Of a DNA stretch of 64,000 nucleotides, positions 6,928 to 56,899 are shown piece by piece. This DNA comes from Botryllus schlosseri. Lineage: Eukaryota. The position numbers and the translations under genes are program-made. The stretch's first letter is position 1. The number at the start of each line of letters is the position of its first letter. The stretch lies in the NCBI GenBank assembly GCA_051294905.1, contig CM119372.1, forward strand, positions 39,806,001 to 39,870,000, given 5' to 3'. The notes beneath the pieces were generated by a model, which worked only from the letters and a program-made list of their open reading frames with translations, was not told the origin of the DNA and ran no database searches.

Positions 6928-7319
6928 CAGTGGTTCCCAACCTTTTTTGACTCATCGCCCCCTTATCAAGCTCAACCCCGATCATCACCCCCCCCCCCCC
7001 ACATTTTGTGAACCGAAAAATCGGTATACAATCTGTAATCATCGGCGGGTTGACTAAAAAAAGGTCAACTTTTCGGCTCGGTGTCGAATTTTACACTTTT
7101 GCAACTAAATTTCCGTGGGTTGACTATAAAAAAAAGGTCATTTCTCCGACTTGACTCCAAAATAGCCGTTTTAACGCGTCATCGCCCCCCTATCGCCCCC
7201 TTCGCTATTTTCGCCCCCTTTGTCCATTTTCACCCCCTATCGCCCCCTTCGTCATTTTCGCCCCCCTAGGCCGCCAAATCGCCCCCTGGGGGCGATATCG
7301 CCCACGTTGGGAACCACTG
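6928..7319. mobile_element. hAT MITE with (T)CGCCCCC subterminal repeats, copy 1
   Basis: TIR CAGTGGTTCCCAAC; perfect 8-bp TSD atatacat. Confidence 0.95.
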
Positions 7320-10623: not shown

Positions 10624-10854
10624 ATCTAATGGACTTATATCGCACTATGCAGTTCTCCTGTAGCATCTACACTTTTACAAATCCAGAAATTATATTAGAA
10701 TGAAAATAAGAGCATAGAAACATTTCATAAATGAGATTATAATTATATTTGAAGTAAAAAAACATTTTCACAAATTAGATCAGAATTAGATCCCGGCATT
10801 TCCATTTGATAATTGGTCTAATTTGTCAACTAAAATTATCTAATTTAATGGTAC

Positions 10855-11012
10855 ATTCATATTGACACGAACCGGAATATTTTCTGCTGACACTCGTCAG
10901 GGGTGATCGTCAGCAACCTGACGAGTGTCAGCCGAGAATATTCGGGTTCATTTCAATATGAATATTGTAATAAATTGTATATTGACGTTCTGTACCTCTA
11001 AGAAGCTCTTAA
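10855..11012. mobile_element. Penelope-like pseudo-LTR fragments in inverted arrangement, each with a decayed hammerhead motif
   Basis: attcatattg...ctgacactcgtcagg / cctgacgagtgtcag...caatatgaat form inverted arms; same family as 38337-38487. Confidence 0.8.
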
Positions 11013-11153
11013 AATTATTTTGTTCCCAAAGTCGGCAAGTCTAAACTGAAGAGCACATACGGGGCCGCATTCCTATTATCATAGTATTCCAGATATCTGA
11101 TCTCAAACTCTATTGATATCACAATCGACTTTCTTCAATGTTATCTATTTCAG

Positions 11154-11469
11154 CAATTTTCAAATCGGATCAAGTTCCGACAATTACAGACTGACCTTTT
11201 CCGGATATTCCGGGAATGCAACCCTCAATTATCTGGTATTTAACAACGGTCAACAATTCTCAACGAAAGATGCCGATCACGATCCTTGGGGGCGAAATTG
11301 CGCTTCTGACCACGAAGGAGGCTGGTGGTATCACGCGTGCGGCTGGAGCGGTCTGAATGGAATCTTCAACAAAACTTGGTGGCAGGGAATTTGGGTGTAT
11401 GACGGTGCCACCCTCACACGGCTGCGCTACTCGGAGATGAAGTTTCACAGAAAAATAAAGGATGAATAG
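11154..11469 (+). CDS. Fibrinogen C-terminal domain gene, terminal coding exon
   Basis: Acceptor tatttcag|C. Translates NFQIGSSSDNYRLTFSGYSGNA...NNGQQFSTKDADHD...NCASDHEGGWWYHACGWSGLNG...WWQGIW...SEMKF, with the hallmark FReD motifs FSTxDxDxD, NCA, GGWWY..C...LNG and EMK. Stop TAG at 11467-11469. Confidence 0.93.
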
Positions 11470-12555: not shown

Positions 12556-14541
12556 CAGTGGTTCCCAACCTTTTTCGGTGGCAGGGCCAAATTTAGAATT
12601 TCAGTGTACGGTCGGGGCCGCACGAATACCAGGGCAATGAAAGGAACCCAAAATAGTCACCAAAATATGAAAATTCGCATTGTTTCGATCATTCGCTCGA
12701 CGCCATTGGCCATTGTGTTGCCGCGCTCCCGTTGTTCAGAACAATCAACCTTTGCTGGCTATTTCGGGGTAGTTTTATTGCCCTGTCGAGATTTCAATTC
12801 GTATTTTTGGAATCAGCGCGACACCTCCTTTCGATAAACACCGTCATATCAAAGTATTCGGACGCTTGGGTCGCGAGCTATAGGACTACGAATTATGCCG
12901 TTTTTGCCGGCCGAGAAGTACGCATCTCGGCGTATTCAATCGTGAGTCACTTGTTGCACATCTATCCGTAAATTAGTTATCAATACCCAGGGTCGTAACA
13001 GCACTTCGTCAGCCCCCCACCCCCCCCAAAAAAAACGTTGCTCTTGGCCCCCTCAGGCTATAGATGGCTGTTTACCGCTGTTTACCGTCTAAATCGGATG
13101 TCCGCTTTAGGCAGCTTCTCTCGACTAATCGCGCGAAGCGCAAAAAATTTATATAATTCATGATTGAATCGGTCAATGTAATCGGGAATCGAAAATATAT
13201 TGGTATCGATTTTTATCCTCTCTCTCCTCACGTAATCAGATTGAGCGGTTGAGCCGAGTGAGTGTTTGAAAAGGTAGGACCACTCCATAATAATTAAATA
13301 TCTTCGGGCGTATACCCGTTGGCAGTAACGAAACAGCACTTCGTCAGGCCCCTCAAAACACTTAGGTCTTGAGCTCCCATAGGGTGATAAACCGACACCC
13401 CGTCCGGTTGTTCGCTTCTGCCACGAAATCAGGATCACCGTTTAGTGAGCCAGCGTGTAGCGCGAAAATTTTCGATAATTCAAAATAAAATATAGGTCAA
13501 TAAGATCGGGAATTGCATATATATTGCTATCAATTACTTGTCCTCTCTGCTCACGTAATCGGATTTACCGATAGAGTTGAGTGAGGTGTCTTGGAAACTG
13601 TAGGGCCCGTAAATAATAATTAAACATATTCGGACGGCGAACCCGTTGGTACGACTTCGTTACATAATGTTATTTGTTATTTCGTGATCTCCAGTCTGCT
13701 ATATCAAGAAATATAGAATCGCCCAAACATACTAAACTAAAAGATGCACACGATTTCAAATTGTTAGTTCTTCACTGGCATATAATTTTTCGCTGCGGGA
13801 TGGTAGCCTATTTGTCTCGTGACGTTCAGATTGCCAAGACAGGAACATTCGGCGCCAGTCATTTAGGCGCCTATGGTCAATTATACCTATATGTATTTTG
13901 AATATACATAACGAAGTTTTCGTTCAGCGTAAGGGCAGTCCTTTTCGGCCAAGGTTTTCTCGCTGCCGATCGTTCTTGGAGTCGCATGTTACATGACTTA
14001 AAACTTTATATGTCCTCGTGCGTCGTGGTGCGGTAATGGCCAACGGCGATATGCCTACTTCTATAAATCTTGGCGTATTTTATCTTTGTTGAAGAGTACC
14101 GAATAATTAAGGCACTAGGAAACGTGAAATCGCGCGCAGCGCGAAAAATCTTTGAAAAAGTTGCATAAAATTTCAAAAAAATACTCTGTAATTTATGCTA
14201 ATTCACTATATAATTTTGGGCCCTCTTCGAGCTCGCTCCCCCCAATTGGAGGGCTTGGGATGCGGCAGTTACGGTCCTGTCAATACCTATATCTATAGGT
14301 ACTGCCCGTACAACTGGAAAGTTAGGGCACATTGCATTGAAACAGCAGTGACGTAATCTTAGCAGTCTACTCACAACGTTACTGCAATCCTAATTGAAAA
14401 CTCCTGACTCCAAGCCAAGCAAGAGTATTTTACAAATATAATTTTTTTTCATAAATCGATTTCTCAATATTTTTGTGGGGGCCGCAAGAAGGCTAGCTGA
14501 GGGCCGCATGCGGCCCGCAGGGCCGCGGTTGGGAATCACTG
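12556..14541. mobile_element. Non-autonomous hAT element (family A), copy 2
   Basis: TIR CAGTG(G/A)TTCCCAACC; perfect TSD gtattaac at 12548-12555 and 14542-14549. Confidence 0.95.
12988..14279. mobile_element. ~1.3-kb non-autonomous hAT element (family B) nested in family A
   Basis: TIR CAGGGTCGTAAC / GTTACGGTCCTG; perfect TSD tcaatacc; internal ~325-bp duplication. Confidence 0.95.
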
Positions 14542-20750: not shown

Positions 20751-22010
20751 TAAGTATTACACCGTCGAAGTATCTTGCCAAACAGTTGTGCAATGTGCAT
20801 TTATACAATACAATACATTGAAACAGGTATGGTCGCATATAGGTTATATATTTGCACATCATTCATACTGTTGCAACGTCACAATCATTGGAACTCGAAT
20901 AATTGACTTGAACTCGATTCAGGATCGGTTGACTTTTATACTCCGTTTTGCCAAGCCCTTTTGGTAAGTCTAGTTTGTATTTGGTTACATTGTATCAACG
21001 CAACGATGATCTGTGATTTAGGCTGAGAAATATGCATCGTAGGAGAAACGTGCCGTATTAGCGTACTTGTGAGGCGACCAAATCCGTGGGACAAGATACA
21101 TAAGGGATATGATGTCGCTCAGAGAGAGAGGCGATGCCGTAATCATCGCTATTGATAGTCTTGATAGAAATCGACGTACTCATACAAGCATCACCGACTC
21201 TGAACGACGTCATAGATATGTAAAGATACATTGAACGCCGATTTGGCACTTGGTGAATTTAGCATTAGAAATGCAAATGCTATTGCTAAAATAAAAGCTA
21301 TGCATCAATAAATGAATGTTTCACTTATAAATGAGCATGAATTGGACATGCGGCTCTTGTTATATATGTAACAATGTATTCGGGTTATGTAACGCAGAGT
21401 TAAGTTATGGGTTAGGTTAAGTTGAGGTTAGGGTTAAGGGTTGCGTGAGGGTAGGTGTCGGGCAATAGCGTAATAGTAGGATACGAATATGATTGGAGGC
21501 TGAATATACCGGTAACCAACCGCAGTTTTATTGCATTTTCCGAGCTAAACCTACAGAACGAGATAAGAAAGTCAAAATATATAAAATTTTGCGTCAAAAT
21601 CATGATAAAGATACTTGTCATGTTGAACACTAAACGCGTGTCATGTCCCATAAAATCCTAGTATTCCCATGATGTCACAAACTGCATTCAATATTACTTG
21701 GTTTCGGTCGTAGTCGAACTTTTGTGGTATATTATAACTTTTGTATCGAAGTACTATTTTTGTTTAATTATCTTAAGACTTTCGTGCAGATTAAGCGAGT
21801 CGTTTTGTTGCTATGAATCAATTGATAATATCGACGCCCTGAGATGTACCCCACGAGAAGTGTACACTTTACAGTTTAATTTATCGGCTCTCGTGCTCGC
21901 AAGATACTTGGTGAAAAGAGTATCTTTAGCCCGGATTGTCTAATTTCAGGAGGTTATTGGAGGAACAGAACCTCTATATACAATTGAATAGTATATTGAT
22001 ATTTATATGA

Positions 22011-22044
22011 ACTCGAACGTTTTCGACTGACACTCGTCAGGGGT
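22011..22044 (-). ncRNA. Minimal type I hammerhead ribozyme motif (PLE-associated)
   Basis: Minus strand ACCC CUGACGA GUGUCAGUC GAAA ACGU UC GAGU: intact core, G10.1-C11.1 pair, palindromic stem III AACGUU, UUC cleavage triplet; one mismatch in stem I. Confidence 0.65.
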
Positions 22045-22153
22045 AGCCTAATCGCCAGCAACTATAGTAGAGAATTGGAAAGAGCATTGTATATTAACAT
22101 ACACACTAGGGTTGTCCAAAATTTTGTAAAATCTCAAAATAGTGCGTATCCAT

Positions 22154-24157
22154 TAGGGTTGTCCATAATTCGGAAAATCTCAAAAAAGATGCGTAATTGC
22201 GTATCCATGTCTCATTCTGTAGATTATTGATAAAAAACGTCAATGAACCTGCAATAAGCTCATAGTGAAGTCGTTAACATTTGTCTAAATGCGTTTGAAA
22301 GTAGCTGCCGTAGAGTGGGCGTGTTAGCGACCATAGAACGGCGAGAAGACTGGTAATCACGAAATCACGTCTCTTGATTGGTTATTCAGCTATGCTTGAA
22401 TGATCACGACCACAGTGGCTTGCTGATTATGTGCTTCTAAGGAGATCGCTAACGGCAATGGTTATGTAAGCGCATTGTACATTGGTGATTTAAAAATAAA
22501 ATGAGACATCTGGTCATTGAATGTTTTAGTGTTGAAACTAGGTAACGATAGGTTTAGAGCAACAATAGCCTGTTACAGTTGGCTTACCATACGTCCTCTT
22601 TTAAGAGGATTTGTCCTCTTTTTTGACTTTTTTGAAAGTGTCCTCGGAGGACGCCCTTTTGTCCTCTTTTTTGACATTATGTCCTCTTTTTTGAAAATTT
22701 AGGTCAGATTTAGAGGAAATCGCGAGTGATATGCCGTAAATTAGCGCAGAAGTGAAGCTCCGGCGGGTATTACGGAGGGAAAAGTGGTGATTTAAGACCT
22801 TTTGACTTTTTTTTTTTTTTAGTCAAACACCTGGCAATGTGTAGAGAAAAACGTTATTTTGAGCTCTTTACCGGTTTTTGAGAATTCTTCTCCAGTTTTG
22901 CATGTCTGAAATTTCTGAATAAGTGTCCTCTTTTTACATTTCCAAAATGTGGTAAGCCTATGTTACAGGCATGACAGAGGTGAAACAGCGAATGATAGTG
23001 AACTTATAGAACTAAGTATAGATCCAAGAAATACATATATGATATGCTTGATATTACGCCAAGTGGTCCTGCTTTTCTGGGTGCAGGTAAGACATATTAG
23101 ACATCACCAAAATGGTGCAGCATAACATGTAAGATGGATGCTGGACACAATCCTGTATGCTCAGAAGATATGTGGGCCTACCAGGTAGTTTACATTGGAT
23201 TTCTGAAGAAGAGTGTAACTACCACACCGCTTCAATCCATCCCTTTTTTGTCCATGTCTGGGTTGATTCAAGCATTAGTCGTTATGCAGCCGGTAATGAT
23301 CTAACATTCATCAAGGACATGCTAAGCAATGCAAGCAAACTGTCTTTTTGCTGGTGCTACCAGCACAGTCTGTGCATATCTTTAGACCTCTTTGCCCGGC
23401 ATCATTGAGGACTTTGACAGCACTTGCGGGTATGATTCATTATGCTGCAAGTATCTGACAGGTGCCAAGCATAAATGACTGATTCATTCAGCACTTACAG
23501 CATTCAAAACTTCAATTATGTACCACGACAACAGAACAATAAGATCAGACAAAGTAATGTCAATGTCAAGCTTTATATTTGTATTCAATGATTGTACATC
23601 CCCTCTGAAACTAGAAATTCGTTTGCCACTTGCATAAGCGCCTTTCTAGTATTTTTCCGCGTGTTTTAGCGCTTTCCATCAAAGAAATCAAGGCATACAG
23701 GCTACAACGATTACCTTCACACTAAGCCATCCAGCCATGTATTTAAAGATATTGTGAAGCAGCTGTTCTTGTAGTTCATCACGTATTTCGTAACTCAACA
23801 TGTTCCGAATATATCCTAAATCACTAGTTGCGGACCAACCTACAATGCACTTACAGAATCACCGCCGTCAGCCGACTCCTTGACCAGCTAATCAACAAGC
23901 CGCCAACGTTGTGATCATTGAAGCATAGCAGATTAGCCAATCAAACGCCGTGATTTCGTGATTACTAGTCTGCTTGCCGTTCTATGGTCGCTGACACGCC
24001 CAATCTACGGCAGCTTCTTTCAAACGCATTTAGACAAATGTTAACAACTTTCCTGTGAGCTTATTGCAGGTTCATTGACGTTTTTTTAACTATAATCTAT
24101 AGAATGAGACATGGATACGCATAAATTTTGAGATTTTCCAAATTATGGACAACCCTA
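22154..24157 (+). mobile_element. hATm-like deleted transposon (inner copy of the same family)
   Basis: Same TIRs; perfect TSD gtatccat at 22146-22153 and 24158-24165; ORF 23157-23408 contains AAGNDLTFIKDML. Confidence 0.92.
22579..22960. mobile_element. GAGGAC-repeat hAT MITE nested in the inner hATm copy
   Basis: Ends ttggcttaccat / tggtaagccta; perfect TSD tgttacag; absent from the outer copy at the equivalent site (~24545). Confidence 0.93.
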
Positions 24158-27100
24158 GTATCCATATGTCTCATTCTGTAGATTATTGATAAAAAACGTC
24201 AATGAACCTGCAATAACCTTACAGGAAAGTCGTTAACATTTGTCTAAATGCGTTTGAAAGTAGCTGCCATAGAGTGGGCGTGTTAGCGACCATAGAACGG
24301 CGAGAAGACTAGTAATCACGAAATCACGTCTCTTGAATGGTTAATCAGCTATGCTTGAATGATCACGACCACGGCGGCTTGCTGATTACGTGCTTCTAGT
24401 AGTTCAAGAATTACGCTAACGGCAATGATGATTCTGTAAGTGCATTGTACGTTGGTGATTAAATAATAAAATGAGACACTTGGTCATTGAATTTTTAGTG
24501 TTAAAACTAGATAACGATAGGTTCAGAACAACAATACCCTCTTGCAGGCATGACAGCTGAGGTGAAACATCGAATGCTTCTGAACTTATAGATCCCAGAA
24601 ATACCTATCTGATATGATGAGATTACGCCAAGTGGTCCTGCTTTTCTGGGTGCAGTGCAGGTAATGTAGCCTATATTAGTTATCGCCAAACTGGTGCATC
24701 ACACCATGTGAGATGGATTCTGGACACAATCCTGTATGCTCAGAAGATATGTGGGCTGGCGAGGTAGCTTACATTGGGACTCTGAAGAAATGTAACTACC
24801 GCACCGCTTCAATACATTCTTTTTTATGTCTATATCTGGTTTGATTCAAGCATTAGTCGTGATGTAGCCGGTAATGATCTAAGATTCATTATGGACATGC
24901 CAAACAATGCAAGCGAACAGTCTTTTTGCTGGTCCTACCAGCATAGTCTATGCTTGCCTTTAGACCCTTTTCCGGGGCATCATTGAGGACTTTGACAGCA
25001 CTCGCGGGTATGATTCATTATGCTGCAAGAATGTGACAAGTGCCAAGCATAAATAGCAGATTCATCCAGCCCGTACAGCTTTTAAGAGTTCAATTATATA
25101 GGCTACCACGATAAGATAAGATCAGACACAGTAGCGTCAATGTCAAGTTTTATATTTGTATTCAATCATGATACATCCCCTCTGAAACTAGAAGTTCGTT
25201 CGCCACTTGCATAAGCGCCTTTGCAATATTTCTTCTCGTGTTTTTGTACTTTCCCTCGATGAAAACAAGGCATACAGGCTACAACGGTTGCCTTCACAAT
25301 AAGCCATCAAGTCATGTATTTAAAGTTTTTGTGAAGCAGCTATTCTTTTTTCAACATGTATTTCGTCACTCAACATGTTCTGAATTAATCTTAAATCATT
25401 ATCTGCGGACCAACCTACAATGCGCTTACGGAATCACCGCCGTTAGCCGACTCCTTGACCTGCTGATCAGCATGCCGCCACCGTCGTGATCATTGAAGCA
25501 TATCAGATTAGCCAATCAAGCGCCGGGATTTTGTGATTACTAGTCTGCCTGCCGTTCTATGGTCGCTGACACGCCCACTCAACGGCAGCTACTTTCAAAC
25601 GCATTTAGACAAATGTTAACGACTTTCCTGTGAGCTTATTGCAGGTTCATTGACGTTTTTTTTATCTATAATCTAAAAAATGAGACATGGATACGCATAA
25701 ATTTTGAGATTTTCCAAATTATGGACAACCCTAACATATACATGTTGATATACAATGTTCTTTCCAATTCTCTACAAGTTGCTGACGAATACTCCTGGCG
25801 AGTGTCAGTCGAAAATATTCGGATTCATTTCAGTATGAATATAGCCTACTACTCCATTTCCAATCCTGTTATTCGAAATCATGAATTTTAGATTCTTAAC
25901 TTTATTCATTTCATCAATGTCCTGATTAACGAAGAATTCCCGACGAAATAATGAGCCCCATCCCTGAACCTTATTTAACCTCTTCACCTTCTGCGCCAAG
26001 TCATAATGGGCTCATTTCATCAATCAAATGCTGGTTACGTGCTAGAAATAATTCACCAACATTATCTTGGTAATACGGTGAAGATCAATTACTTCGTATA
26101 TAATGCTTGAGCTTTCGAAACACCATCGTCACAACTATACCCAAGTCTTACTTTGAGATGTACACAAAACCTGAATATCTGTTTAATTTTGTTTATGTAC
26201 GGATTTTGGAACAAGTTTGTTACCGTAGGAATTTACCCTCTTTGGAGTCGCATTTGCGTGTTAAATATCATGTATATCTGGGCAATAGTGTTGTCAAACT
26301 TGAATTCATGACACAACTTGTAGAATTGAGGGAATATTCTGGTGTTTGCCGAGTGTAGTTGACAGTATCAGATGTCATAATGCCCGTGTAATTGCTCCTA
26401 ACCCCAATGCGAGAGAACCAGCGGTGGGTAAAAGGTAGTCGCGGAGGAACATAACGACATCGGTTCGATCTTCAAACATAATATGACATGAAACAGCGCT
26501 GATAGGGATAGCTAGACAGGGATCTTCTGAGCATACTTGGAGTACTAGAAAATTTTCAGCTTTTCTAGATTAGATTAAATTTACTGACGGGATTTGTTAT
26601 GTCCTTACCCGTATTAGACAGTCGATTGGTTTTCGATGTTTTTTGACGCCGTCATATTATCAAAAATTGTTCGTCCATCTATTAGTATATATCTTCATAT
26701 AATCGCTTGACGTGGATTTCTAGCTGATAGTCAGAAGGTATATATGCATCGCATTTGCAATCTGAGGTAGAATACATGGTTCGTTGCCGTGTAGAAACGG
26801 CTGATTAGTCAAAGATTCTGTTGGACAGTGTGAAATATTAATGGAAGAAAATTATAATGAAAGACTGCTTTTCGGTGGTAGAATATTCCGGTGTAGGGCA
26901 CATTATCGCTGCAAGTTTTGATATTGTACAAAAATGGTGATTGCTTGTTGGAGCAGTAAAGTTGCAAAGCGACCAAAGTGAATGATAATAGGGATAAGAT
27001 TTTTTTCCAAAACCCGTGATTGGTATCGTTAATTGTTTTTAAGTAGCATGTGCGATGTTGATATTTTAAGAGCGATAGATGGAGAGGAAGTCGTTCGTTC

Positions 27101-27741
27101 CATTGTCACAGTCTGGAAATCGCAACTGAGCAGGCATGGGCAACTAGTTAATCATAATTGTATAATTAGACCAATTAAATATAAATTTTTATGATTTGTG
27201 AGATACTTCTAATATGCTCGAATTGTAATTCTTAAGTAATTTGTGGAATCTTTCCATTCTCTAATTGCTATTCTATTCTAATTACTGGTTTTCCTGAAAT
27301 TGCTACCGGAGAACTGTATATAGTGCGGAAACGTACCGAAACCCAGTGTAGAGACATACCACATTCTCATGCTTATGAGGATGAGCTATGCTTTGATGTA
27401 AACTGAGCTTCATTCTTGGTGTATTCCTTCCTTCGTTCGAATTTAATTCAATTTCAAAGTGTTTGCGTGATTGAAATTCTAATTTAATTTGAAAAAAGGC
27501 GTAGCTATAACTGTAATTTTAATCTAACAACTAGAGACACCCCAGCTCTCCGTACTCATTTCTGAAATAGAATCCATTAAAATACCGTGAAAAGTTGATT
27601 AGAACTCGATCACAATATTAAGATCTTTGTAATATAATACGAGCATTGGTATTTTTTGCATTCATCTCGTTTCAAATTGAAGAGACTGTTTGATGACAGA
27701 GTTTCAATATGCAATGGAATAATATATGCATATTGAAATTA

Positions 27742-27775
27742 ATCCGAATATTTTCGGCTGACACTCGTCAGGGGT
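27742..27775 (-). ncRNA. Minimal type I hammerhead ribozyme motif (PLE-associated)
   Basis: Minus strand ACCC CUGACGA GUGUCAGCC GAAA AUAU UC GGAU: intact core, palindromic stem III AAUAUU; one mismatch in stem I. Confidence 0.65.
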
Positions 27776-30700
27776 CTGAGGCACTAGTAGAGAATGGAAA
27801 ACTTTATTTCAATATGAATACGTTATGCGATTCAATTTCTTATTACGTTACGTATTGCTCATCCGTTTCGAGGACGAAATAGCCACAAAACCACTACCAA
27901 ATCTATTTGAAGGTAATCAATGTGTGAGGTGGTCATTTGCGAGTATGTTGATATCGAATCACATGAATTTTGAGCGATGAAATCGCATTTTTCTGTACCT
28001 GGTACCGTATGCTGGCCGTTCAACTTCAGTCGAGTGGCGAGGCGAACGTAATGAGATCGTGAGATTGATTGGATCTTGAGGGCGGAACGATTTGTTCCCC
28101 CTGTCAAATCTGCGAGGAAGCTTTGTCTCGAGTGTTGTTGAATAAGTTGTTTGTTTTGGTTTGATCCTGTTTATCAGCGATGGAATTAGCTGCATCGTTT
28201 GCTGTACTGCGGGCGCAGAGTTCACCACGAAGCCAGACTAATGATGGCTTGTCGTTACATCCCTGACGCTTCCATTGCTCTTATTATGGCCGGCATTTTG
28301 AGACTTATCAAGGACACTGTCCTGATGTAATGCTCGCGTGTAAGATAACTTAGCGCGCTCTGTCTTTTTTGCGCAAACAATGAAACAAAGTGTACTTAGA
28401 TGATCTTACAACATCCACGATGCTTGATCCCTGCATTAACTCCTTATCAAATAATTAGACTCGGAAAACCAACTATATAGCAATTAACATTGCGTTGAAG
28501 GGAAGATCAGAATTCATTGCGTTGTATATCCAGCGCTTGATCGATTCCGCGAAAAAAGAAAAAATAGGACGAGACTACTTTTAGAATGGGGTGTGGAATA
28601 AAATGACGGCATATATGCTGAACACAAAGTCGTGAAATTTCGAAATCTTTCGAAATTGATCGCCCGGTCAGACATATAGCATAAATATCCGGGAAAATAT
28701 TTTAGGGCGCACAGAACTTCGTTATACAATTGAATAATATTTTCATATTGAAAGACACACGAGTAATTTCGGCTGACATCCATTGGGGGTCATCGTCATC
28801 AACTAGTAGAGAATTGAAATAACATTTATGTCAATATGAATAGATTATTCAATTCTATATTTACTAAAAGTGATTAGATAATTACGTGGTTTGAGGTCGC
28901 CAGTCGATGCTGTCGCGGTGCGGTCTTGTCGGACGTGACTTCAGACCCGAATTGTGGAACTCTGTCGGAAAACGTCAATTTATATGGTTGTCTTGCTCCC
29001 ATGTTCTTTGACGGTGTATTCTCAGTGATTTTCAGGTCATGTTCAACCATAAGCCTTATCTATGTGGTCTGGTAAAACGCAAATTAAAATAATGATAGTG
29101 AAATGTAACTCGATTTTTATATCGCGATGTCTTAATTAACTATATGCAGTGAAGCTTCGAGTTTAGTGGGTTTTGGACAGATTGATTTACAAACGATGTA
29201 ATGTATATTGAATTATTGATACTTGACGCTGATTCAGTCGAAACTTGTGTCAAGTGATCGATGAAGCTCTTTGAAGTTGTGGATCCACTATTCAGATATC
29301 ACTGCGAATATCTCGAAAAGTATGTACGCGGTGGGAAGAATGCGTTGTTTAGAGCAAAATTCTGCGATATTGAGTAGATTTCACTTTAGGATACATACTC
29401 TTTTATTTGCAAGATATTTTAGATACAAACGATGTCCAATGTACGCCAATAGAATGATATTCTGCCTGTAATACACTATCTAGCGACGGCATAGGGTTGA
29501 ACCAAAATAAATAATAATGCTATTGTGATATATTCACCCAGTAAATCTCTGTTAAATCCATCAAAATTGCAGCATAATTCCAAATCAAGTTCACAGTCGC
29601 TCTCAGATGCATTGCACAGACGATCGAACCACAAAGAGAAACATTACAGTCTCAGTAGCCTTGGAAGATATCATTATGCCATATAGGTCTCACGACCAAT
29701 TATAGAATAGTTCGCACGGACAACATCAATATTTACGCAATTTGAACTGAACTGGAACGCCAATATCATCGACGCAGAGACGCTAGTAGCACGCGAGTCG
29801 CGATTCACGCGAATTGAAATCGATTTTCCTGTCGACGGTCTGTCTTATTGATATACCATGGTTAGCGTACCCGAATCTCAAACGATTGTGAATTCTAATG
29901 ATTCCAGTCGAGTAGTGAGACATCATGATACGCTCTTTACCATTAATAGTTGATTTATCAACGTGAATTATAGTTCCCATGCTAATTTCCACTACGGGGG
30001 CTCGTATTTCGGTTGTATCCAATATGGAAGCTATACGGATAAGAGAGGAAATAATAGCGGAAGCAATAGCGAAACCAACTGCATTATCGCAAAGTGCAAT
30101 GAAATATAGGTATTGCCGAAAAAATATAAAACGTGATGTAAAACTGACATGATATTTTTTGTGGCCCCATAAAACGTACATATATTTGAAATTTGTACCT
30201 CATGCATGCTGTTGTGACGTAATATTGAGTCTAACAATTTAAGGCTAATAATCGATTCGAATCGATTAACTCAGGTACTTGATCTTACCCAGCCCGAGTA
30301 TTAATCGACTGGCCATGGCCATGTTCACGAGCCAAGCTGTTCTGTTCAACTTTAACCATTATGGACTTCTTTGTATGTAGATCCCTGCTCTGCTCAAGTA
30401 AAGATATGCAACATTTGATACCATCATAAACAGATATTAGAACAATAACCAAGGCTCGAGTATAGCCGACGTTTCTGTCTTTTACTTCATATTTACCGCA
30501 TTGGTTCGCATTTTCACTTTCAATTAGTTTTATTGGGACATTTCGCATTACATTTTCCCGTATATAAGGGGTATATTTTAAAAGGCGTACACTCTTTTGA
30601 AAGGCAGTCAGCGTCGACCAGTGTCAATTGGTACGATATCTCACCATATTCGAAGAAAAGTTAAGAATCCTGTGATCCTCGTGCGATGCAATTATCCTTT

Positions 30701-31842: not shown

Positions 31843-34699
31843 TCTATGGATCACACCAGATTGATTTCAAGTATACCTGATGCAACAATCGCTAATCCAG
31901 GTCAACTTGTATGTGTGTATAATTAGAAATGGTGCGTGCAACTGCGAATGGTCATTGCACCATATCATTTAAATATGGTCAATGCTATTTTATACTATAT
32001 ACGGACGATCCTAATGTTAGATTTCTCTACCTGATAATATGACAAATTCAAATATCATATTGTATCCACATAATCGTCTGAACGAGACCTATGTCTGTTA
32101 CATAGCTGATGAGGTATTTCATTTAAATTAAGAAGAGAAAATGCGATGTAAAGTTAGCTGATGTAAATATGTTAATATCAATGCGCATGGGTACATATGT
32201 AGGGCGCTCGTATGTACACAAATGTTAATTCAGTCAGTGATTCTACGTATATACGATACAAGGTCATGAGATCAACTGAAATTATGTTTATGGAAAAACA
32301 GCGTAGGTATTGTCAAGGTAGCTCTGTATGACTCTACGTTCGAATATAAATTAAGAATATTGTTGATATACAATGCTCTGTTCCATCTTCTACTAGTTGC
32401 TGACGATCACCCCTGACGATTGTCAGCCTAAAATATTCAAGTTTATTTTGATATGAATATATGATACAATTAATGAATATTGACCGAAATAATGAAACTC
32501 TTCTCGGAGATTAGGAAACTACGGATCAAATCATTCTATAGAAGCCAATATTATAGTTCGTTCCAGTTATTTTTAAATCTACGAACATCAATATACACCT
32601 GAATACTATATTCATATTGAAATCAAACCGAACATTTTTGACTGAAACTGGTCAGGGGTAATCGTCAGCAACTAGTCGAGAATTGGAAAGCACATTGTTT
32701 ATCAATAATCGTAACATATTCGGTGATACGATTGTTGATATAAAATGTTCTTTCCAAGTCGGCTTCATTTCAATTGGAATATTCAATATTATCATAATAC
32801 TTCGTAAGTTTTGCTTCCTATAAAAATAATGTCATCATTGACAGATGACGAGACTATACAGCGCTACCGTGCGCAACCAAGTGCTCCTAATTGGACGCAC
32901 AGCGACTAATACACAGATTTCAACAGATCGACCTTTCGCGTGTGAAATATCCTACTTTCTATGGAGAATATCCACGTAGCGCGTTTCCAAAATCGGCCCT
33001 CAACGACAATACATATTAATATTCTTGGCAGGCAAGTGTCAGTAAGGAGAACACACGCAGATGGCCGGTTTTGTCTTCCAAGCGCACCAAGGCGAGAGCA
33101 AATAATCAGTGCCGAACCGTATCATAATAAATAGACGCAGAATGATAAACGGCAGTCGTAAAGAATCGCCAGAATTATTGTTTCCAATTCATGTCTCATG
33201 CTTTCTACGATTTACTCGCATTTTGAATTAGCAAGTTCAGAGTTACCCACGGTCCAAGCGCAGGACGCAATACGCATTATAATGCCCACTGTACATAAAT
33301 ATCACACGATTGTTATGCTTAGACAGATTGGATCAACTATAAAATTGTCAAATTTTCCAAATTAGATTAGAATTAGAATTATTGCTGCACAGTGTTTTTC
33401 AAATTATTATAAAATTGGGCAAAGATCATTAAAAGTTTAACTGTATACTAGAAACTTTCTGACGCTTTATCTTCTTATGTTCGAATGATTATGACGAGTA
33501 TACACGTGTCGCGTTATTTGCCAAATGTTGACGATGTCGTGTTCAATGTTTATTTACTCTTACAATTCTGGAAAATCGTCGACAAATCGTTGCTACAGAA
33601 TTTTCAGCATTTGAAGAGTAAACAAAGTGCGACTGATACTTTTCCAGTGCTGCTAAATCGTAACAAGTCTTCAGCAAACACGACTGCTGCAGCTTTAAGC
33701 TGATTCGTGCGACTCGGTAGGGCGTCTTACTGGAGACCTGGCGATTTTTATGAAATTTTAGGGAATCTCTACAAGTATAAATGCGATGCAAATAAAGAAT
33801 TAACCTCACTGCAAGAAATTTAATCAAACTTAAAGATTGAATCACCTTATAACACAAAACGCAAGTTTTGAACCGCGAAATGCATCGTGAAAATCGTGTC
33901 ATATAATAGTTTGGAAGGTGAAGCCTGCATATGAAATTAATAACATACTAGTTTTAATTACCATAGACGTAAGAAAATATATAATCTATATTGTGATCTC
34001 TATAACAGTATTGACAAATATCATTACCAATTCGTCTCGTGAATTCCTAATGCTGCTATTTCATTACCAGTGGTATTACTTCAGCCAGATCGCCATTATA
34101 ATTATGTTTATACATGCATTGACTTCATTGTCAATATATCTCATTATGTAACATTAGTATGAAAAGAATCATGTCCTTCGCAAATCAAATCTATGTAGCG
34201 TATGTACCGATTGTAGTCGTTCTACAGTAAAGCGTAATTGACTATGAAATTTCATCCGCTATGTTGTCACCTCAAACTAAATACGGCATTCGCGAAACAC
34301 ACGCATTCGTTGATGATCGTGGGTCGGAAAACTTTTAGCTTGCGTTTACGTATACACAACTAGACTGTATGATATACCCAGGATCCGAAAAGCAAGTGCA
34401 AAGGTGATCTGTAACTATGTACTGTGCCATGGGAGTGTGTGACGGTAGCTTGGCTGAGTCAGTAAGGTGTTTTATACCGCGCACGACCTTTACCACTATC
34501 AACATATTCAGTTGCGTATAACTGCTTTTGGGGACTATATTATGTCACCATTACCTGCGTGTAAAAGTATTATAATCGGTTTTGTACATCCTGAAGTCAT
34601 TATGGCGATAGTACGTTTCAGGTGGCATAATACAGCGTACAGTTATAGTACTAAGCAAATGTTAAGACATATCGCACACTCAAACTCTTAAACGTAGAA

Positions 34700-36272: not shown

Positions 36273-38094
36273 GTGAGTACGCCCAGATACTTTAGCCTTA
36301 GTTAAGACAGAATATGCCATCGATCATGATGTATTACGGGCTCTTTCTAACAGGGCAATGACATCTTGTCATACAAAGCCTCCTTATTGCCTTACATAAT
36401 CACCCGCTCATGGTGGCGCAACCATTTTTCTGCCTCTCAGAATTTTGAGTGGTATTGTTTTCGGGAGAATGCGGTCGGGGAAGCCGATATAATTTTTGTT
36501 CAAATGTCCGCAAAAATATACGCTCATCAACGGATATACAACAATGAAACGAAAATGGGTACAGTAAAATTTAACGGAAGTGAATAATGAACTGCACGGA
36601 TATACAGTGTGGAAAAAAGATTTCAATGCAAATTTCAAATTCATAGCTGAAGAGCATCTTTGAGGTACAGAACTTAAGCGTGAATATTTCCAGCTGATAC
36701 TCGTCAGGGGTTAATCGTCAGCAACTAGAATAGAATTGGAAATATTCTTATTTCATCTGTGCTATTTACACTATGAATTTTCCACTGAATAAGTAGATAT
36801 TCCCTATTTGCACTTAAATAATTACTAAAATATTTATGATATTAGATTACTTTTACTTCTACAAGCCATTTTTGGGCCAAGAATATTTACATTTTACGTA
36901 CTTGAAAATTGCTACTTTTACTTACTTTCAAATCGCTAGTTTAGTTCGTTTGTTTACTTTGCGGGCGACAGGGTTGTGATTGATTCATGATTTAAATTAT
37001 TTTTGATCAATCGAACGTGCCAACGTGAATTCCTTACAACGTCCCTATGTGCCTACGTCCCGTCGCACCCCATTTCTACTTATTCTGGTTTCGCTAGCTA
37101 TTCAATTGTGGGATAGGCTCTACACTCTCGGCGAAATGAGCGTGTATTCACTTCACATCCAAGGGGCCGGAAAGGGTGGTACATTGAAGCAGAACCACCG
37201 AACTCTGAATTATATCGCTGTCGTAAATCAAACGTGCCTATACGCACATACCTCCCTACGTTCCTGTGCAAGCATCATTTGTATTAGAATAGTGTACTCA
37301 ATTTATACCGCGGTACGAGTCTGGGTTATGTTCTGGTTTCTTGTGCCATGAGTTTATATTCACACCCGTATAGCAGGGGTGGTGCACGGGTGGAAATACA
37401 CGCTCTTCCTGAACCATATTGTTCACCATTAGGGTGAACTATTTTCGACAAGATTCTAGACCTCGAAACATATTCAAGCCTAATGGAAGAAAGTCTGTGG
37501 TTCTCAGGTAGATATCGAATATATTTGCAATTCTCCATCCCACGACACCAAAAATACCAAACATTATTGCGCTAGTCACGCGATCAAGTCGAAATCGATG
37601 CGGATGTGTTACTCCTGTTACAAAGGAAACACCACAAGGTACGGATCTGGTTGATACCTTTCATTTGTATTCAAGCCGTCTGTCTAGATTTTGCGTAATG
37701 ATCACTTGTCGCTGCCCAATAAACACTGCATCTTGGTCGGCACTCAACTTGTGGTGGCTTTGAAGTGACACTAACTAACTTCGTATTTACCGGTGTGCGA
37801 TTTCTCAACGAAAGCGCGGCTATAGGTTTCTACGAGATATAATGTTGGAATTTGAGATCTCGATCTACGAAGTAATGAGGCGAAAATAATATTCGATATC
37901 AATGATCAGGTATGGGCACTCGAATCTGATTGAGTTTGAATTGTAATGATTCAAGTCGTGTAGTGCGACACGGTTTTTTCAAGTAATGAAATTACACATT
38001 AATTGATCAACGATAATCCTGGTTTCGAACCTGTTAAAGCCTTGAAACCTATAGATAGGTCGTCTCGCATCTTCCGTAGCTACCGACTTGTAGG

Positions 38095-38249: not shown

Positions 38250-38336
38250 TTTTCATTTTCGTGAGGTCGTGACCAACCCACAGCTTTGCCAGAAGGTGCA
38301 ACGAAATAGGTATGGTCGTAAATGTACCAAATTATC

Positions 38337-39470
38337 TTTAAAGAGCTTCTTGGGGGTACAGAACTTCAATATACAATTGAATAGTATATTCATATTGAAA
38401 TATACCCGAATATTTCCGATGACACTCGTCAGGGGTAATCATCAGCAACTAGTAGAGAATTGGAAAGAACATTGTATATCAACAATCGTGTCACAAAATA
38501 TGACGTCACCAGCATGAAATTTCGTGAACGAGAGAGCGTTCAATGTACTATTTTTAGGTGGTACACGAACTCGTTTTGTTGACAGAGTTTGGGTTAGTGT
38601 ATTTTGATAAATGTCGACTCCAAGGCACACAAATGGAAGTGGGAACGGCCCCTCCCGATCTTGTTGGGACAATATCTTATTCGTACTACTACCGTGTCTT
38701 ATTATAATTTGGATATAAGGAAATTCGATCAATTGGAACTTCAAGCATTATACTGTTTCTGCCGTACTTCAAGATCGCGTATATTTACATCGGGAAACTT
38801 ATAGGACTTTGCGGCGCTGTAGGGCAGTTCATCCCCCTCCCAACGACTCGAAATCTGTCGTCTCGATAATTATTCGCACAAATTGGATTATCTATTAAAT
38901 GTTTGCCGATGGCAGAATTATAGGCCTTTGATCTGTCAGCATCAAGCTTAAGCGGATGAGTTAAGGGTGAGCTTCTCACCGAGCCTGATGCACGTGTTCT
39001 GATAAATCTGTGGTGTAGAACTCGCATTGTATTCTTTGCGGTCGCATAACAGATGTATATTTTAATTTCCAACGTCAAGCATAATGAGACTCGACTCAAA
39101 GTCTAATACGTGATTTACAATGAAATCATAATGATACTCAATTTTACTAGCCATAGTTGCATGAAGTGTATCGCATATACAGTATAGATTACTAATTCCG
39201 GTATTACTATTCCCGTTCGTGTTCGTAACTCGCTTCCAATTGGGCGCATAGCGGGGAATCACCGATATTCCGGACGTTCTCTGTCAATTCGATCCGGATA
39301 CGAAACGGATTCTTGGCAGTAATCTCGCACGCCCTGAATCTATTGGTCATATTCCATTCTGATATTGAACAAGCCAACGAGCTGTTTCTGTGCATATCGC
39401 ATTTCGCTCGGAGATATAGCTCAATGAAATCAACCCTCACGGGCACGCATTCACTGAATACTCTTTATTT
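38337..39470 (-). mobile_element. Penelope-like retroelement remnant: GIY-YIG endonuclease C-terminus plus 3' pseudo-LTR with hammerhead motif
   Basis: NSAIGKHLIDNPICANNYRDDRFRVVGR joins, across an insertion, to GRSHFHLCALESTFIKIH*PKLCQQNEFVYHLKI (cf. PLE SAIG.HL..N..CA..Y....F.I....R..FHL..LE..FI....P.LCRQKEFVY.L). Followed directly by the dispersed CTGACGAG repeat. Confidence 0.85.
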
Positions 39471-47239: not shown

Positions 47240-47530
47240 GCAGTTCTAGTTCTAGTTGCGGATTTTGAAAAGTGAGTACCTCTAGTTTCAATTGTAGATT
47301 TCGAAAATTGAGTAGTTTTAGTTGATTTTGAAACGCGGTTTGTTCTAGTTCTAGTTCTAGTTCAGATTCTAGTTACTAGATTCGAAACGTGAATAGTTCT
47401 AGTTCTTGTCCTATGCGCGGATTTTGAAAGGTGAGTAGGGCTAGTTCAAGTTCTAGTCGCGAGTTTTGAAGAGATGAGTAGTTCTAGTTGATGGATTTGA
47501 AAAGTGTGTAGTTCCAGATCTAGTTTTATT
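47240..47530. repeat. GTTCTA-rich degenerate array (likely MITE subterminal region)
   Basis: Repeated tagttctagttc and gattttgaaa..gtgagtag units. Confidence 0.7.
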
Positions 47531-49274: not shown

Positions 49275-50484
49275 TACATACATGTATACACTCAATCTGT
49301 TTGCTTGTGTTATTCACGGTGTTTGTCAACAACAACGGTCATTTACACCTGACCGACTGACCTTATTTTGATTACGGTAACTGCCGACTTGGAACGCTGC
49401 CCATTTCCAGGCTTTTTATACACTGCTTACCCGGATCATGTTGCGCGGAGGAGCCTGGATGAAATCCCACATTTAGGTGGGAATTCGTGAGTCGCTCTCG
49501 GGTTGGACTCGAACCCGCAACCCATTGGCGTTGCAGTCGTGAATCATACCACTATGCTATCTCGCCACACTATACATTTAGTATACATACCTCTTATTTA
49601 CATGTTCTACGTCCAGATGCGTGTCGCATTTCACAGTCCATGTTGTTTCGACATCTTCCGTTCTTTTAATTGTAACGCAGTCTTGTGGTGTTTTAATAGC
49701 TGAAAATATTGATAAAACTAGTACTGATACTGATACAGTATGCTATTTATAGATTACACAGTAAACTCACTAATTTGGCAACATTGAATGTACGACCTTA
49801 ACTTGTGACAAAACGTCTAACCATGTTCGGGTTTGATTGAGTTGGCGAGTCGTTTACGCCCATGACGAATTTGGACTACCTTCGATTAGTAGTTTCTGTG
49901 CGTACTAATGCCCGACCTTCATCATTGACAGATAAATTACGTAAAGTACTAGAGCAACTGGCTTTCAGCATAAGCCCGAAAACAATGCTATTTGCGTGCA
50001 CTCGATCAAAAATAAACATTCTCGAAGGCGATATATTAGAATCGATTATTGGTCGTCCATTTTAATCTAGTGCTGAGTTTCTTAATCTTGGGTAAATTCA
50101 CCCCCGGTGCTAAATTTATGCTTTTAGGTACCGAATTGATAAACGATCTAAAAATAAATCCAAATGCATATTCATCCGAAGGAAATATGAATAAAAGCAG
50201 TAATCGATTTCGTTGAAACTCCTTGACACCCCACGCTTCACTCACTCAAAGCGCACAAACATTCGTAGAATACCTGTTTCGCTCATTTGATTTTAATATA
50301 CAAATTAAATAATATATTCATATTGAAATAAACCTGAATATTTCCGGATGACTCTCGCCAGGAGTAGCCTAATCGTCAGAGACTAGTATAGAAAGTAGGC
50401 GTGAAAATATTTTGTAGTAAAATTTCTGTACCTTCATGGGTCTCTTGGTCTGAACAGGTTTTATATTCTTGTTTTCCGTTTTAG

Positions 50485-53810: not shown

Positions 53811-54202
53811 CAGTGGTTCCCAACCTTTTTCGACCCATCGCCCCCTTTTCAAGGTCAACACCGATCATCGCCCCCCAAATTTTGTGCACCAATAATTGGG
53901 CATACAGACTGTAATCACCGGCGGGTTGACTAAAAAAAAAGGTCATCTTTCTCCGCTCAGAGCTGAAAATAACGTTTTTTCTCTCCGAATTGCTAGGTGG
54001 ATGACTATAAAAAAAATAAATAAAAAAAAAGGTCAGCCGTTTTGACGCGTCATCGCCCCCCTATTGCCCCCTTCGCTATTTTCGCCCCCCGTCGCCCCCT
54101 TTGTCCATTTTCGCCCCCCTATCGCCCCCTTCGTCATTTTCGCCCCCCTAGATCGCCAAATCGCCCCCTGGGGGGCGACATCGCCCACGTTGGGAACCAC
54201 TG
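53811..54202. mobile_element. hAT MITE with CGCCCCC repeats, copy 2
   Basis: Same TIRs and body as 6928-7319; perfect TSD atttaaac. Confidence 0.95.
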
Positions 54203-55060: not shown

Positions 55061-56899
55061 ATATAGCGGGCTCTCTTAGCGAAGTGATGCGTATTTCCAC
55101 CCGTGTACCACCCTTGAGATAGTCCTACCGCAGTGTGAATATACACCCATGACACACGTAACCAGAACCTAACTCGGACTTGAACCACGGTAGAAATAGA
55201 GTACAGCATTTTATACAAATTACGCATTTCTCTAGGAACGTCGGAAGCTATGCACGTCGGCACGTATAGGATTTATGACCACGATATAATTCTAAGTTAT
55301 ACAATTGAATAGCATATTCGTATTGAAATGAAACGTGTGATTGAGTTGAGTTCTGTTTCATGTACCCCTGTTCTGCCCTTTGGGGGGTGAATACTAGGGT
55401 TGTAATGACTCTCGAGTCATTTGTTTATTGACTCGGACTTGGACTCGGACTCGAGTCATAATACCATGAGTCGGACTCGACCCTCTGCTCGCTGACTTGG
55501 ACTCGGACTTGACGCAGTGATGAATTGAAAATGACTCGACTTGACTCGGGTCAAAACTATAAAAGTGAGATTGACTTGTGGCTGGGAGCCTTGTGACTTT
55601 GTTACAACCCTGGCATGAACTAGGCTTTGGCAGAAGCTTAGAAGTTTAGAGTCCGGGTGAACTTTTCACCAATCCACCAACGATTGGTTCGACTGATTTC
55701 ACATATTGGATGAAAGCACAGCCTTTATTTCGAAAAATTTAACCTGTTAAACTAAACTTGTGAGGTAGTTAGTGTTCAATATTGTTCTATCTGTGTGTCC
55801 TGGATTGGTCATTCATCAGAATCGGCCAATCTATAGTCTTTTTCAACAAAAGCAATTAGAGTTTAATGTATAAATAAAGTACATTGAGCAAGCCATCTGT
55901 TCATCTCAATTATTAGAATTTCTATAACTGGTGACACGGTTTTTTATGTACAGTGACTATTACCCCTGACGAGTGTCAGCCGAAAATATACGGGCTTAGG
56001 CCTGCCCCCTCTGCACCAAATAATGGACCTCATGGTGACTTTTCGTTTGCTAGCGAAATGACCCCCTATTTTAACACCCTAATCCATGCCGACCTTGTAG
56101 AATTCGCCGAAGTATTTCAGTATTGTGCCTTATCGACGTGATTCACCGAGAATATGTCAAAATAGATTAAACGAAATGAATCATAGTCTACGCGGGTCGC
56201 GCGAAGAAACATAATTGCTGTGGGATTATCCTGTGTGAGGCGAATATCACCAGCCTACTGTACAATTGTGATATCACTTTCCAAACTCACGCCGTAATAT
56301 GCAGTCATAGCGCCCCCGAGACAAAATCTTGATCGGAATAGTTTGATGCCATGTTTGTTTTCTGCCTGAGTTGGACAACAAGGCAAGATTTAGCTTGTTC
56401 AAATTACATTATACCGTAATTAGAATGATAGCCACCGTTTTCTTTCGGATTAGATTATAATTAAAATTACGGAATTCGCACAAACTTGGTAATTATTTAT
56501 GTCAATTCCACATTGGACAGAAATACAACAACAATCGAATCAAACTTGATTCTCTTGAGCACGAAAATGGCAAATTGTTGTCCACCAAGCTTGACACCTT
56601 TCGCAGTCTACAGTTCTCTTGTAGAATTTTACAGAAAACCATAAATTAGATTTGAACTAAAAGATACCATAGAAACATGTTATTAGATTACCGGAATTTC
56701 GCTCTAATAAGTTAATTAGACAAGTTCAAGGATTTCTGCGTCATGGAATATGTTACGTTATTCCACGTATTACTACTCCTCAAAATATAATTTCAGTCAG
56801 GTGGCATTCTAATGATAACCGCACGAACATTGTGTCACTGTGATCGACTAGTCACACGAGACACCGTTATAGTTTTACTACATAGAAGCACACTTAACG

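Follow-up and report, generated by a model that had tools for sequence, protein, structure and literature searches.

A candidate type I hammerhead with a putative pseudoknot helix II in an abundant Penelope-like retrotransposon of Botryllus schlosseri

Here we analyse a repeat found in a 64,000-nucleotide stretch of the Botryllus schlosseri genome (GenBank assembly GCA_051294905.1, contig CM119372.1, positions 39,806,001 to 39,870,000 of the forward strand; this whole stretch is the window, and its own numbering is used throughout). This repeat constitutes the 3′ end of a ~2.7-kb Penelope-like retrotransposon that is young and very abundant, here termed family A. An earlier reading made from the letters alone (the sequence-only reading) had proposed that the repeat encodes a minimal hammerhead ribozyme with a palindromic stem III, and had named two copies, at 22011-22044 and 27742-27775, as keeping the core. 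Compensatory changes between three diverged lineages of Penelope-like elements (PLEs) support reading the motif as a type I hammerhead of the 'minimal' class described in PLEs, an explanation to which we assign a probability of about 0.65. The kind itself is known, PLE hammerheads having been established since 2014.

Conservation and covariation of the motif

Where units stand in tandem, the motif is found ~105 nt past the stop codon and ahead of the following AUG, within the pseudo-long terminal repeat (pseudo-LTR), and the open frame of the next unit begins inside it. On the sense strand of family A it reads GCUGAC (box X), GAUU, ACCC, CUGACGA, G, U, GUCAGC (box Z), C, GAAA, AUAU, UC, GGGU. 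In the hammerhead reading, ACCC and GGGU form stem I, and the core comprises C3-A9 together with G12-A14. Sister families were found by a protein search of the B. schlosseri genome itself, and a further lineage, C, by a scan of metagenome contigs. One sister family, at 88-89% identity, has a motif identical to that of family A. Family B (68-70% amino acid identity to A) has 271 motif copies, many uninterrupted 859-codon frames and 2700-bp tandem units. Lineage C (51-53% identity) is represented by two metagenome loci from one sample, L051, which is good, and L050, which is decayed. A pattern scan of viral contigs returned 0 further lineages, protein scans of viral and genome contigs returned none, and the C-type box pair (UCUGAC...GUCAGA) has 0 matches in the B. 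schlosseri genome. The junctions of the three lineages are given below.

Columns: box X; linker; stem I 5′ strand; core; stem II region; G12-A15.1; palindrome and site; after the cut
Family A: GCUGAC; GAUU; ACCC; CUGACGA; GUGUCAGC-C; GAAA; AUAUUC; GGGU...AUG
Family B: GCUGAC; GAUU; GCCC; UUGARAA; GUGUCAGCUC; GAAA; AGCUUC; GGGU...AUG
Lineage C: UCUGAC; GAU; AUCCC; CUGAAGA; GUGUCAGAC; GAAA; AGCUUU; GGGAUG

In a comparison of families A and B, little of the 3′ untranslated region lying further upstream can be aligned; the stretch that runs from box X to the AUG is retained. The predicted cut site (between UUC and G) lies 14 nt before the first AUG in A, 10 nt in B and 3 nt in C, and this AUG opens an N-terminus that is conserved between families (MNILFNC...).

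Covariation was assessed with seven aligned sequences (alignment A2, columns 5-55), and all counts are to be read as drawn from only three independent lineages. Substitutions among the lineages affect 11 columns of the block; eight of these make up four compensated pairs, and no pair is broken. In the core, C3-G8 of A and C is U3-A8 in B, a variant previously reported in PLE hammerheads (PMC4209133). In the centre of the palindrome, pair 15.3-16.3 changes from U-A to G-C (AAUAUU in A, AAGCUU in B and C). Stem I keeps CCC/GGG invariant and varies in its fourth pair (A-U, G.U or U-A), and the first base of box X and the last of box Z (X1-Z6) change from G-C to U-A. The three remaining substituted columns are N7 (C, G or A), H17 (C in A and B, U in C) and the gain of a fifth stem I pair in C; G and A at N7 both occur in multi-copy sublineages of family B. 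GAAA, A15.1/U16.1 and the G10.1-C11.1 pair are present in 7/7 sequences. The covariation score is 0.241, compared with 0.086 in shuffles, and 0/500 shuffles reach it; pairings slid along the alignment gave 0 compensatory pairs in all six controls. When equal numbers of substitutions are placed at random, at least as many compensations without a broken pair arise at P = 5e-4 (B) and 5e-5 (C), two values that are not independent because the palindrome change is common to B and C. Thus the proposed core, stem I, stem III palindrome and UUC site are borne out by compensatory changes between diverged lineages, including changes in both stem I and stem III.

The same does not hold within family A. 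The sequence-only reading had seen a stem III series in AACGTT, AATATT and an intermediate AATGTT, and this series was rejected as within-family covariation on genome-wide counts: among ~6,965 copies, ATAT occurs 6,708 times, ATGT 109, ACAT 141 and ACGT 7, with 2.3 ACGT copies expected from independent changes. The AACGTT form at 22011-22044 is therefore a rare double mutant of the AATATT master, neither a subfamily variant nor an ancestral CpG state. Likewise the earlier consensus stands as written except for its AYRT part, which is ATAT in nearly all copies. Among the first 100 flank-anchored family A copies, 47 are identical to the consensus over 43 inner positions and the rest carry scattered changes (hand count); comparison within family A alone has no power to decide for or against a hammerhead. 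Family A lacks a local stem III and has the palindrome AAUAUU in its place; a full helix III would form only when two copies pair as a double hammerhead.

Between A9 and G12 there are 9 (A, C) or 10 (B) bases and no hairpin helix II. What had been described as a 1-bp stem II with a loop is better accounted for if the 'loop' is one strand of a pseudoknot helix with the upstream GCUGAC box. Box Z, at the place of loop II, would pair with box X 4 nt upstream of stem I and stack on G10.1-C11.1. This X-Z helix of 6 bp is paired in 7/7 sequences, with one compensatory change, and had been proposed from family A alone before B and C were compared. We consider a pseudoknot helix II to be probable on this evidence. 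Family A subfamilies whose linker between box X and stem I is longer by 4 to 11 bases have transposed, and their spread fits the linker being a loop.

Insertions of this TAGGC type (4-11 bases) were seen in L053, L056, L069 and L079, at 22045-22053 of the window, and in the window copy near 50335. In this subfamily, pairing of UAGUU with GAUUA could place the box in a hairpin loop, resembling helix IV of the pseudoknot hammerhead.

The Penelope-like element and its copies in the window

The pattern CTGACGAGTGTCAGYCGAAA, with up to three mismatches, has 10 matches in the window and 0 in 100 shuffles. They lie at 10881 (-), 10918 (+), 22021 (-), 25795 (+), 27752 (-), 32413 (+), 32636 (-), 36688 (-), 38413 (-) and 55966 (+). 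Repeat finding (families D3, D10 and D17) recovered more decayed copies of the same repeat at ~28760 and ~50335, and all 12 positions align to one reference copy; every position listed in the sequence-only reading holds the repeat, ten by pattern and two by repeat finding and alignment. Its supposed unit of 110-170 bp is, in fact, the common 3′ end of 5′-truncated copies of the 2.7-kb element. The copies and their motifs are as follows.

10836..10916, minus: family A copy, head-to-head with the copy at 10918..11015; C11.1>A, G1.1>C
10918..11015, plus: family A copy beginning at the core, without the 5′ strand of stem I; GAAA changed to GAGA
21944..22090, minus: first named family A copy, a 5′-truncated PLE; left arm of a local inverted pair with 25745-25843
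22054..22059, minus: upstream box X of the first named copy, GCUGGC (consensus GCUGAC); proposed 5′ strand of pseudoknot helix II
22044..22011, minus: hammerhead-like motif, first named copy, ACCC CTGACGA GTGTCAGTC GAAA ACGTTC GAGT
22011..22044, minus: the same motif as RNA, ACCC/CUGACGA/GUGUCAGUC/GAAA/ACGUUC/GAGU; predicted cut between 22015 and 22014
25745..25843, plus: family A copy, partner (right arm) of 21944..22090 in the local inverted pair; core mutated to CTGGCGA (A6>G)
27696..27801, minus: second named family A copy; upstream box deleted
27775..27742, minus: hammerhead-like motif, second named copy, ACCC CTGACGA GTGTCAGCC GAAA ATATTC GGAT
27742..27775, minus: the same motif as RNA, ACCC/CUGACGA/GUGUCAGCC/GAAA/AUAUUC/GGAU; predicted cut between 27746 and 27745
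28693..28843, minus: decayed family A copy; core destroyed
32363..32470, plus: family A copy; G10.1>U, G12>U
32583..32712, minus: family A copy, tail to tail with 32363..32470; G8>C, AAUGUU form
36650..36742, minus: family A copy with internal deletion and mutated core
38335..39009, minus: longest copy in the window, with residues 767-860 of the open reading frame (ORF) at 38543-39009; motif broken (GUCA-UC GGAA)
50268..50399, minus: decayed family A copy of the linker-insertion subfamily (GATTAGGCTAC); A6>G
55950..55996, plus: short family A fragment; 20-mer intact, U16.1>A

Read directly, the two named stretches are as described, on the minus strand, and CTGACGA is present in both. Neither is intact, however: the first has a stem I mismatch at 22013 (GAGT instead of GGGT), its AACGUU form being 1 of the 7 genome-wide, and the second one at 27743 (GGAT instead of GGGT). 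The second (match 27752) is without the upstream box, lost by deletion. Only the copy at 38335-39009 extends into the ORF; the others are short stubs.

Genome-wide, the 20-mer core with up to one mismatch occurs 10,654 times in 495.5 Mb and its reversed control 0 times, in agreement with the high copy number proposed earlier. In 30 genomic copies oriented on the motif, 5′ ends scatter from -3 to beyond -1499 and 3′ ends are fixed at two points, ~+58-65 or +95-105; RNA and DNA read ends from four public runs pile up at +49/54 and +94/98. Variable 5′ ends, fixed 3′ ends and piled read ends together indicate 5′-truncated retro-copies with an optional tail of ~45 bases. At L004:1549-1598 in family A the insertion ends lie ~45 nt apart, both within the first ORF codons. 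These paired ends resemble the two adjacent internal reverse transcriptase (RT) start sites and 'tail' of a lizard PLE (PMC11167929).

Long copies continue into an open frame of 860 codons on the motif strand (~848 from the first AUG). Pfam RVT_1 matches a long copy at 1.7e-8 and the 860-codon frame at 7.8e-9 (36 bits, cut-off 29.6), the translation contains YVDD and DKG motifs, and the sole result of a PDB sequence search was a weak RT match. The C-terminal stretch matches Pfam GIY-YIG at E 0.026 and 15.3 bits, below the cut-off of 22.6; it contains a VVYEY..C.C.C.YVGRT pattern, judged by eye against the consensus, and some homologues of the ORF carry PF01541 among their precomputed matches. 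Full family A units measure 2692 bp from motif to motif, and both tandem and inverted arrangements of them occur. Of the opposite-strand pairs less than 5 kb apart in the first 100 motif places, 13/13 are '- then +', with 3′ ends outward; the window pair 32413 (+)/32636 (-) has the opposite orientation. Described PLE traits include 5′ truncation, partial tandems that form pseudo-LTRs, an inverted 5′-truncated partner and a tail of 30-40 bp (PMC8557442). Family A shows 5′ truncation, partial tandems, inverted partners and an optional tail, and the proposed derivation of the repeat from a PLE is supported by the truncation pattern, the RVT_1 ORF, the tandem 2692-2700 bp units and the inverted 5′-truncated partners.

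Several further observations concern the element and its surroundings. A protein search gave 877 related PLE ORFs at E<=1e-10. Among the matches listed, relatives of the ORF at 40-64% identity (proteins P0002-P0121) often lie on contigs of 2.6-3.1 kb, about one unit, which may be transcripts or circular or tandem assemblies; only one has an informative name, 'reverse transcriptase', and comes from the octocoral Chrysogorgia stellata (45%), and the other named ones are labelled 'hypothetical protein' or carry an RT-domain label from a metagenome-assembled genome. Head-to-head junctions of two 5′-truncated copies, as at L032:570-687, form long perfect hairpins, and those of L032 give sub-threshold matches to microRNA precursors (MIR807, 52 bits versus a gathering score of 113). 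The two PLE stubs of the local inverted pair flank, with 3′ ends outward, a repeat complex at 21992-25843 that comprises inverted arms (21992-22486 and 25409-25843, 74%), a palindrome (23834-24456) and direct repeats (22963-24157 and 24542-25733) at 85.5%. A dispersed non-autonomous element with a PLE tail was considered for this 22.0-25.8 kb structure and rejected: among the 41 matches listed, the sole counterpart of the join from stub to inner sequence is the other arm in the window, which indicates a local duplication rather than a dispersed chimeric element.

Further features were noted in the window.

11101-11466, plus: open frame encoding a Fibrinogen_C domain (4.8e-14) and likely to be a host exon; adjoins the head-to-head PLE pair at 10836-11015
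1468-1890, minus: DUF7041-bearing open frame (8.9e-9), which probably belongs to another mobile element
7164-7292 and 54035-54176: C-rich repeat present twice, built from CGCCCCC-type units (families D11 and D13)
47242-47529: about six loosely repeated units of 27-73 bp with AGTTCTAG and GATTTTGAAA words (family D7)
4609-5213, 13675-14259 and 39985-40428: three copies of another dispersed repeat of at least 600 bp (D8, D9, D16 and D18), unrelated to the PLE

Cleavage, competing folds and alternative explanations

The arrangement described above suggests how a hammerhead could act in this element. In read-through or tandem transcripts, two sense copies would pair through the palindrome and cut after C17, and the element's own protein may assist, as in a lizard PLE (PMC11167929). 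We regard such cleavage in vivo, as a dimer and perhaps with protein assistance, as an even proposition. Cutting would release an RNA that begins 3-14 nt before the AUG, and the competing hairpins in which box Z pairs with the core (CUGAC/GUCAG) could act as an off state. All genomic copies span the cut site, which implies that the reverse-transcribed RNA was uncut or religated; a role of the ribozyme in mRNA 5′ processing or translation is on this ground more likely than one in forming the RT template. A fuller model, which we offer tentatively, joins these elements: helix II would be a pseudoknot, a design for which the RAGATH-1 type alone has so far been crystallised, and helix III would exist only in dimers, the product would be an almost leaderless mRNA for the RT-endonuclease protein, and folding or the protein itself would sort cut mRNA from uncut template.

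A number of observations weigh against a pseudoknotted, cleaving hammerhead. The match to Rfam hammerhead models that had earlier been suggested as a check did not appear: none of these models, RF03152 included, matches the window at gathering score, the interval 21950-22110 at E<=10, or intact copies of A, B and C (L032, L042 and L051) at E<=10. (A whole-genome scan with RF00163 bears on neither side, as only 73/70,463 candidates scored and its controls were silent.) The predicted minimum-energy fold of one copy consists of the hairpins CUGAC/GUCAG and CCGAA/UUCGG at -10.5 kcal/mol, which bury the core and the cut site, and the hammerhead pairing alone comes to +0.5. A long hairpin helix II and an additional base following A9, both found in the published minimal hammerheads of PLEs, are absent. 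In one bulk RNA sequencing run from B. schlosseri, no start or end point of molecules was reported, leaving the predicted cut site of L004, between 1526 and 1527, unmarked, and, as noted, every genomic copy runs across that site. Moreover, only three independent lineages are at hand and lineage C amounts to one good copy (L051), the X-Z helix has one compensatory event in its support, and inspection by eye of the three-family junctions showed no conserved helix IV that would hold box X in its loop, such a helix being weak where present.

Not all of these points carry the same weight. The same sequencing run covers the motif ~600-fold on both strands and 98% of the reads continue into unlike sequence; these reads come mostly from solitary stubs in other transcripts, where no cut is expected if cleavage depends on dimers, and the lack of cut ends therefore weighs lightly. 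The competing hairpins, in turn, are unavoidable given the hammerhead core, the palindrome and the complementarity of X and Z, and so provide no independent evidence for another function.

Among the alternatives, the one that survives best is a vestigial or re-purposed hammerhead, selected as a binding or folding signal for the RT/endonuclease protein, or for ligation or circularisation, and no longer cutting usefully. The loss of the hairpin stem II, the strength of the competing hairpins, the lack of read ends at the cut site and the insertions that all span it speak for this view. Published PLE minimal hammerheads also cut poorly in vitro (PMC4209133), and in the lizard PLE hammerhead mutants were without effect on insertion in vitro and cutting required the protein (PMC11167929). 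However, the change from C3-G8 to U3-A8, and the freedom of N7 and H17 only, are constraints of a catalytic fold rather than of a generic binding site, and the hairpins are by-products without compensatory change. We consider this alternative unlikely.

A chance look-alike, in which a pair of 3′-untranslated hairpins or a promoter element in the pseudo-LTR DNA happens to contain CUGAnGA and GAAA, is less probable still. The two-hairpin fold is the predicted minimum and is 92.9% paired in the three lineages, and in other PLEs Craig et al. describe 'HHR_core' strings that stand alone, with no stems to fit them (PMC8557442). Yet the two-hairpin model has 0 compensatory pairs, all four compensated pairs fall at hammerhead positions at the P values given above for random placement, and the motif stands where canonical PLEs have their hammerhead. 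Finally, the terminal inverted repeat of a DNA transposon or miniature inverted-repeat transposable element, its palindromic boxes serving as transposase sites, would suit the many inverted copy pairs with the motif outward, but is excluded by copies 5′-truncated at all lengths with one fixed end, by long copies that encode an RT and not a transposase, and by tandem direct units, inverted 5′-truncated partners being a described PLE trait (PMC8557442).

Comparison with known hammerheads and significance

Canonical PLEs carry a hammerhead in the pseudo-LTR region (PMC4209133; PMC11167929). Family A resembles the PLE minimal hammerheads of Cervera and de la Pena 2014 (PMC4209133) in this position within a PLE of the probably endonuclease-bearing (EN+) type, in being of type I with a short stem I (4-5 bp), in having a palindrome at 15.2-16.2 where a local stem III would be, a design that implies dimeric action, and in keeping G10.1-C11.1. 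The U3-A8 variant is shared through sister family B, and so are the thousands of mostly solitary, truncated copies with some close opposite-strand pairs. The difference lies in helix II: in the published motifs it is a hairpin of 6-8 bp, and an unpaired base separates A9 from G10.1, whereas family A has one G-C pair and a 'loop' that can pair with the box upstream of stem I. The motif has no match in two of the supplementary files of that study (supplementary file 1 lay outside the search), and literature searches at the level of listings and abstracts, Lunse et al. 2017 not being covered, turned up no description of a PLE hammerhead with a pseudoknot helix II; similar variants may be present in supplementary file 1 or in Lunse et al. 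2017.

The closest structural parallel is the pseudoknot (PK, RAGATH-1) hammerhead (RF03152), whose crystal structure shows a 6-bp pseudoknot helix that 'fulfils the same role' as helix II and forms when the 'loop II' strand pairs with one lying 5′ of helix I (PMC11300833). The order of PK strand, linker, stem I, CUGAnGA, PK strand, GAAA, helix III, cut and stem I is shared, and this common 5′-to-3′ order with a crystallised ribozyme answers the steric question. In that structure the partner strand lies in the loop of helix IV, an A-rich linker forms a triplex and helix III is local (PMC11300833); in families A-C no conserved helix IV is seen, the linker is GAU(U), helix III is a palindrome only and RF03152 does not match. 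To our knowledge, the known members of the PK hammerhead class are bacterial or phage. A related solution was described by Perreault et al. 2011, in whose ribozymes loop II pairs with a tail beyond stem I and holds stems I and II parallel; mutational tests showed this pseudoknot pairing to be needed for hammerhead speed, and those ribozymes, unlike family A, keep a normal stem II of several pairs (PMC3088659).

The position of the cut also has a parallel. RNA-virus hammerheads are reported to cut a few nt before an AUG (7 nt in one case) and to allow cap-independent translation via self-cleavage, and hepatitis delta virus (HDV)-like ribozymes of non-LTR retrotransposons are cited for the same role near a start codon (PMC13725137). 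That work concerns viruses and HDV-like ribozymes; for PLE hammerheads such a role is suggested by position only.

PLE hammerheads cut poorly in vitro, and some very successful PLEs are without them. Family A is young and huge and has uninterrupted ORFs, and its two sister lineages let evolution, rather than pattern matching, read the motif. If helix II is not a pseudoknot, family A adds one more PLE hammerhead family. If it is, the motif would link the 'minimal' hammerheads of eukaryotes to the fast pseudoknot hammerheads and would explain why descriptor and Rfam searches overlook motifs of this sort. Family A would then offer a compact system for asking whether PLE hammerheads form the 5′ end of the element's mRNA, and whether an RNA switch splits its transcripts between translation and reverse transcription.

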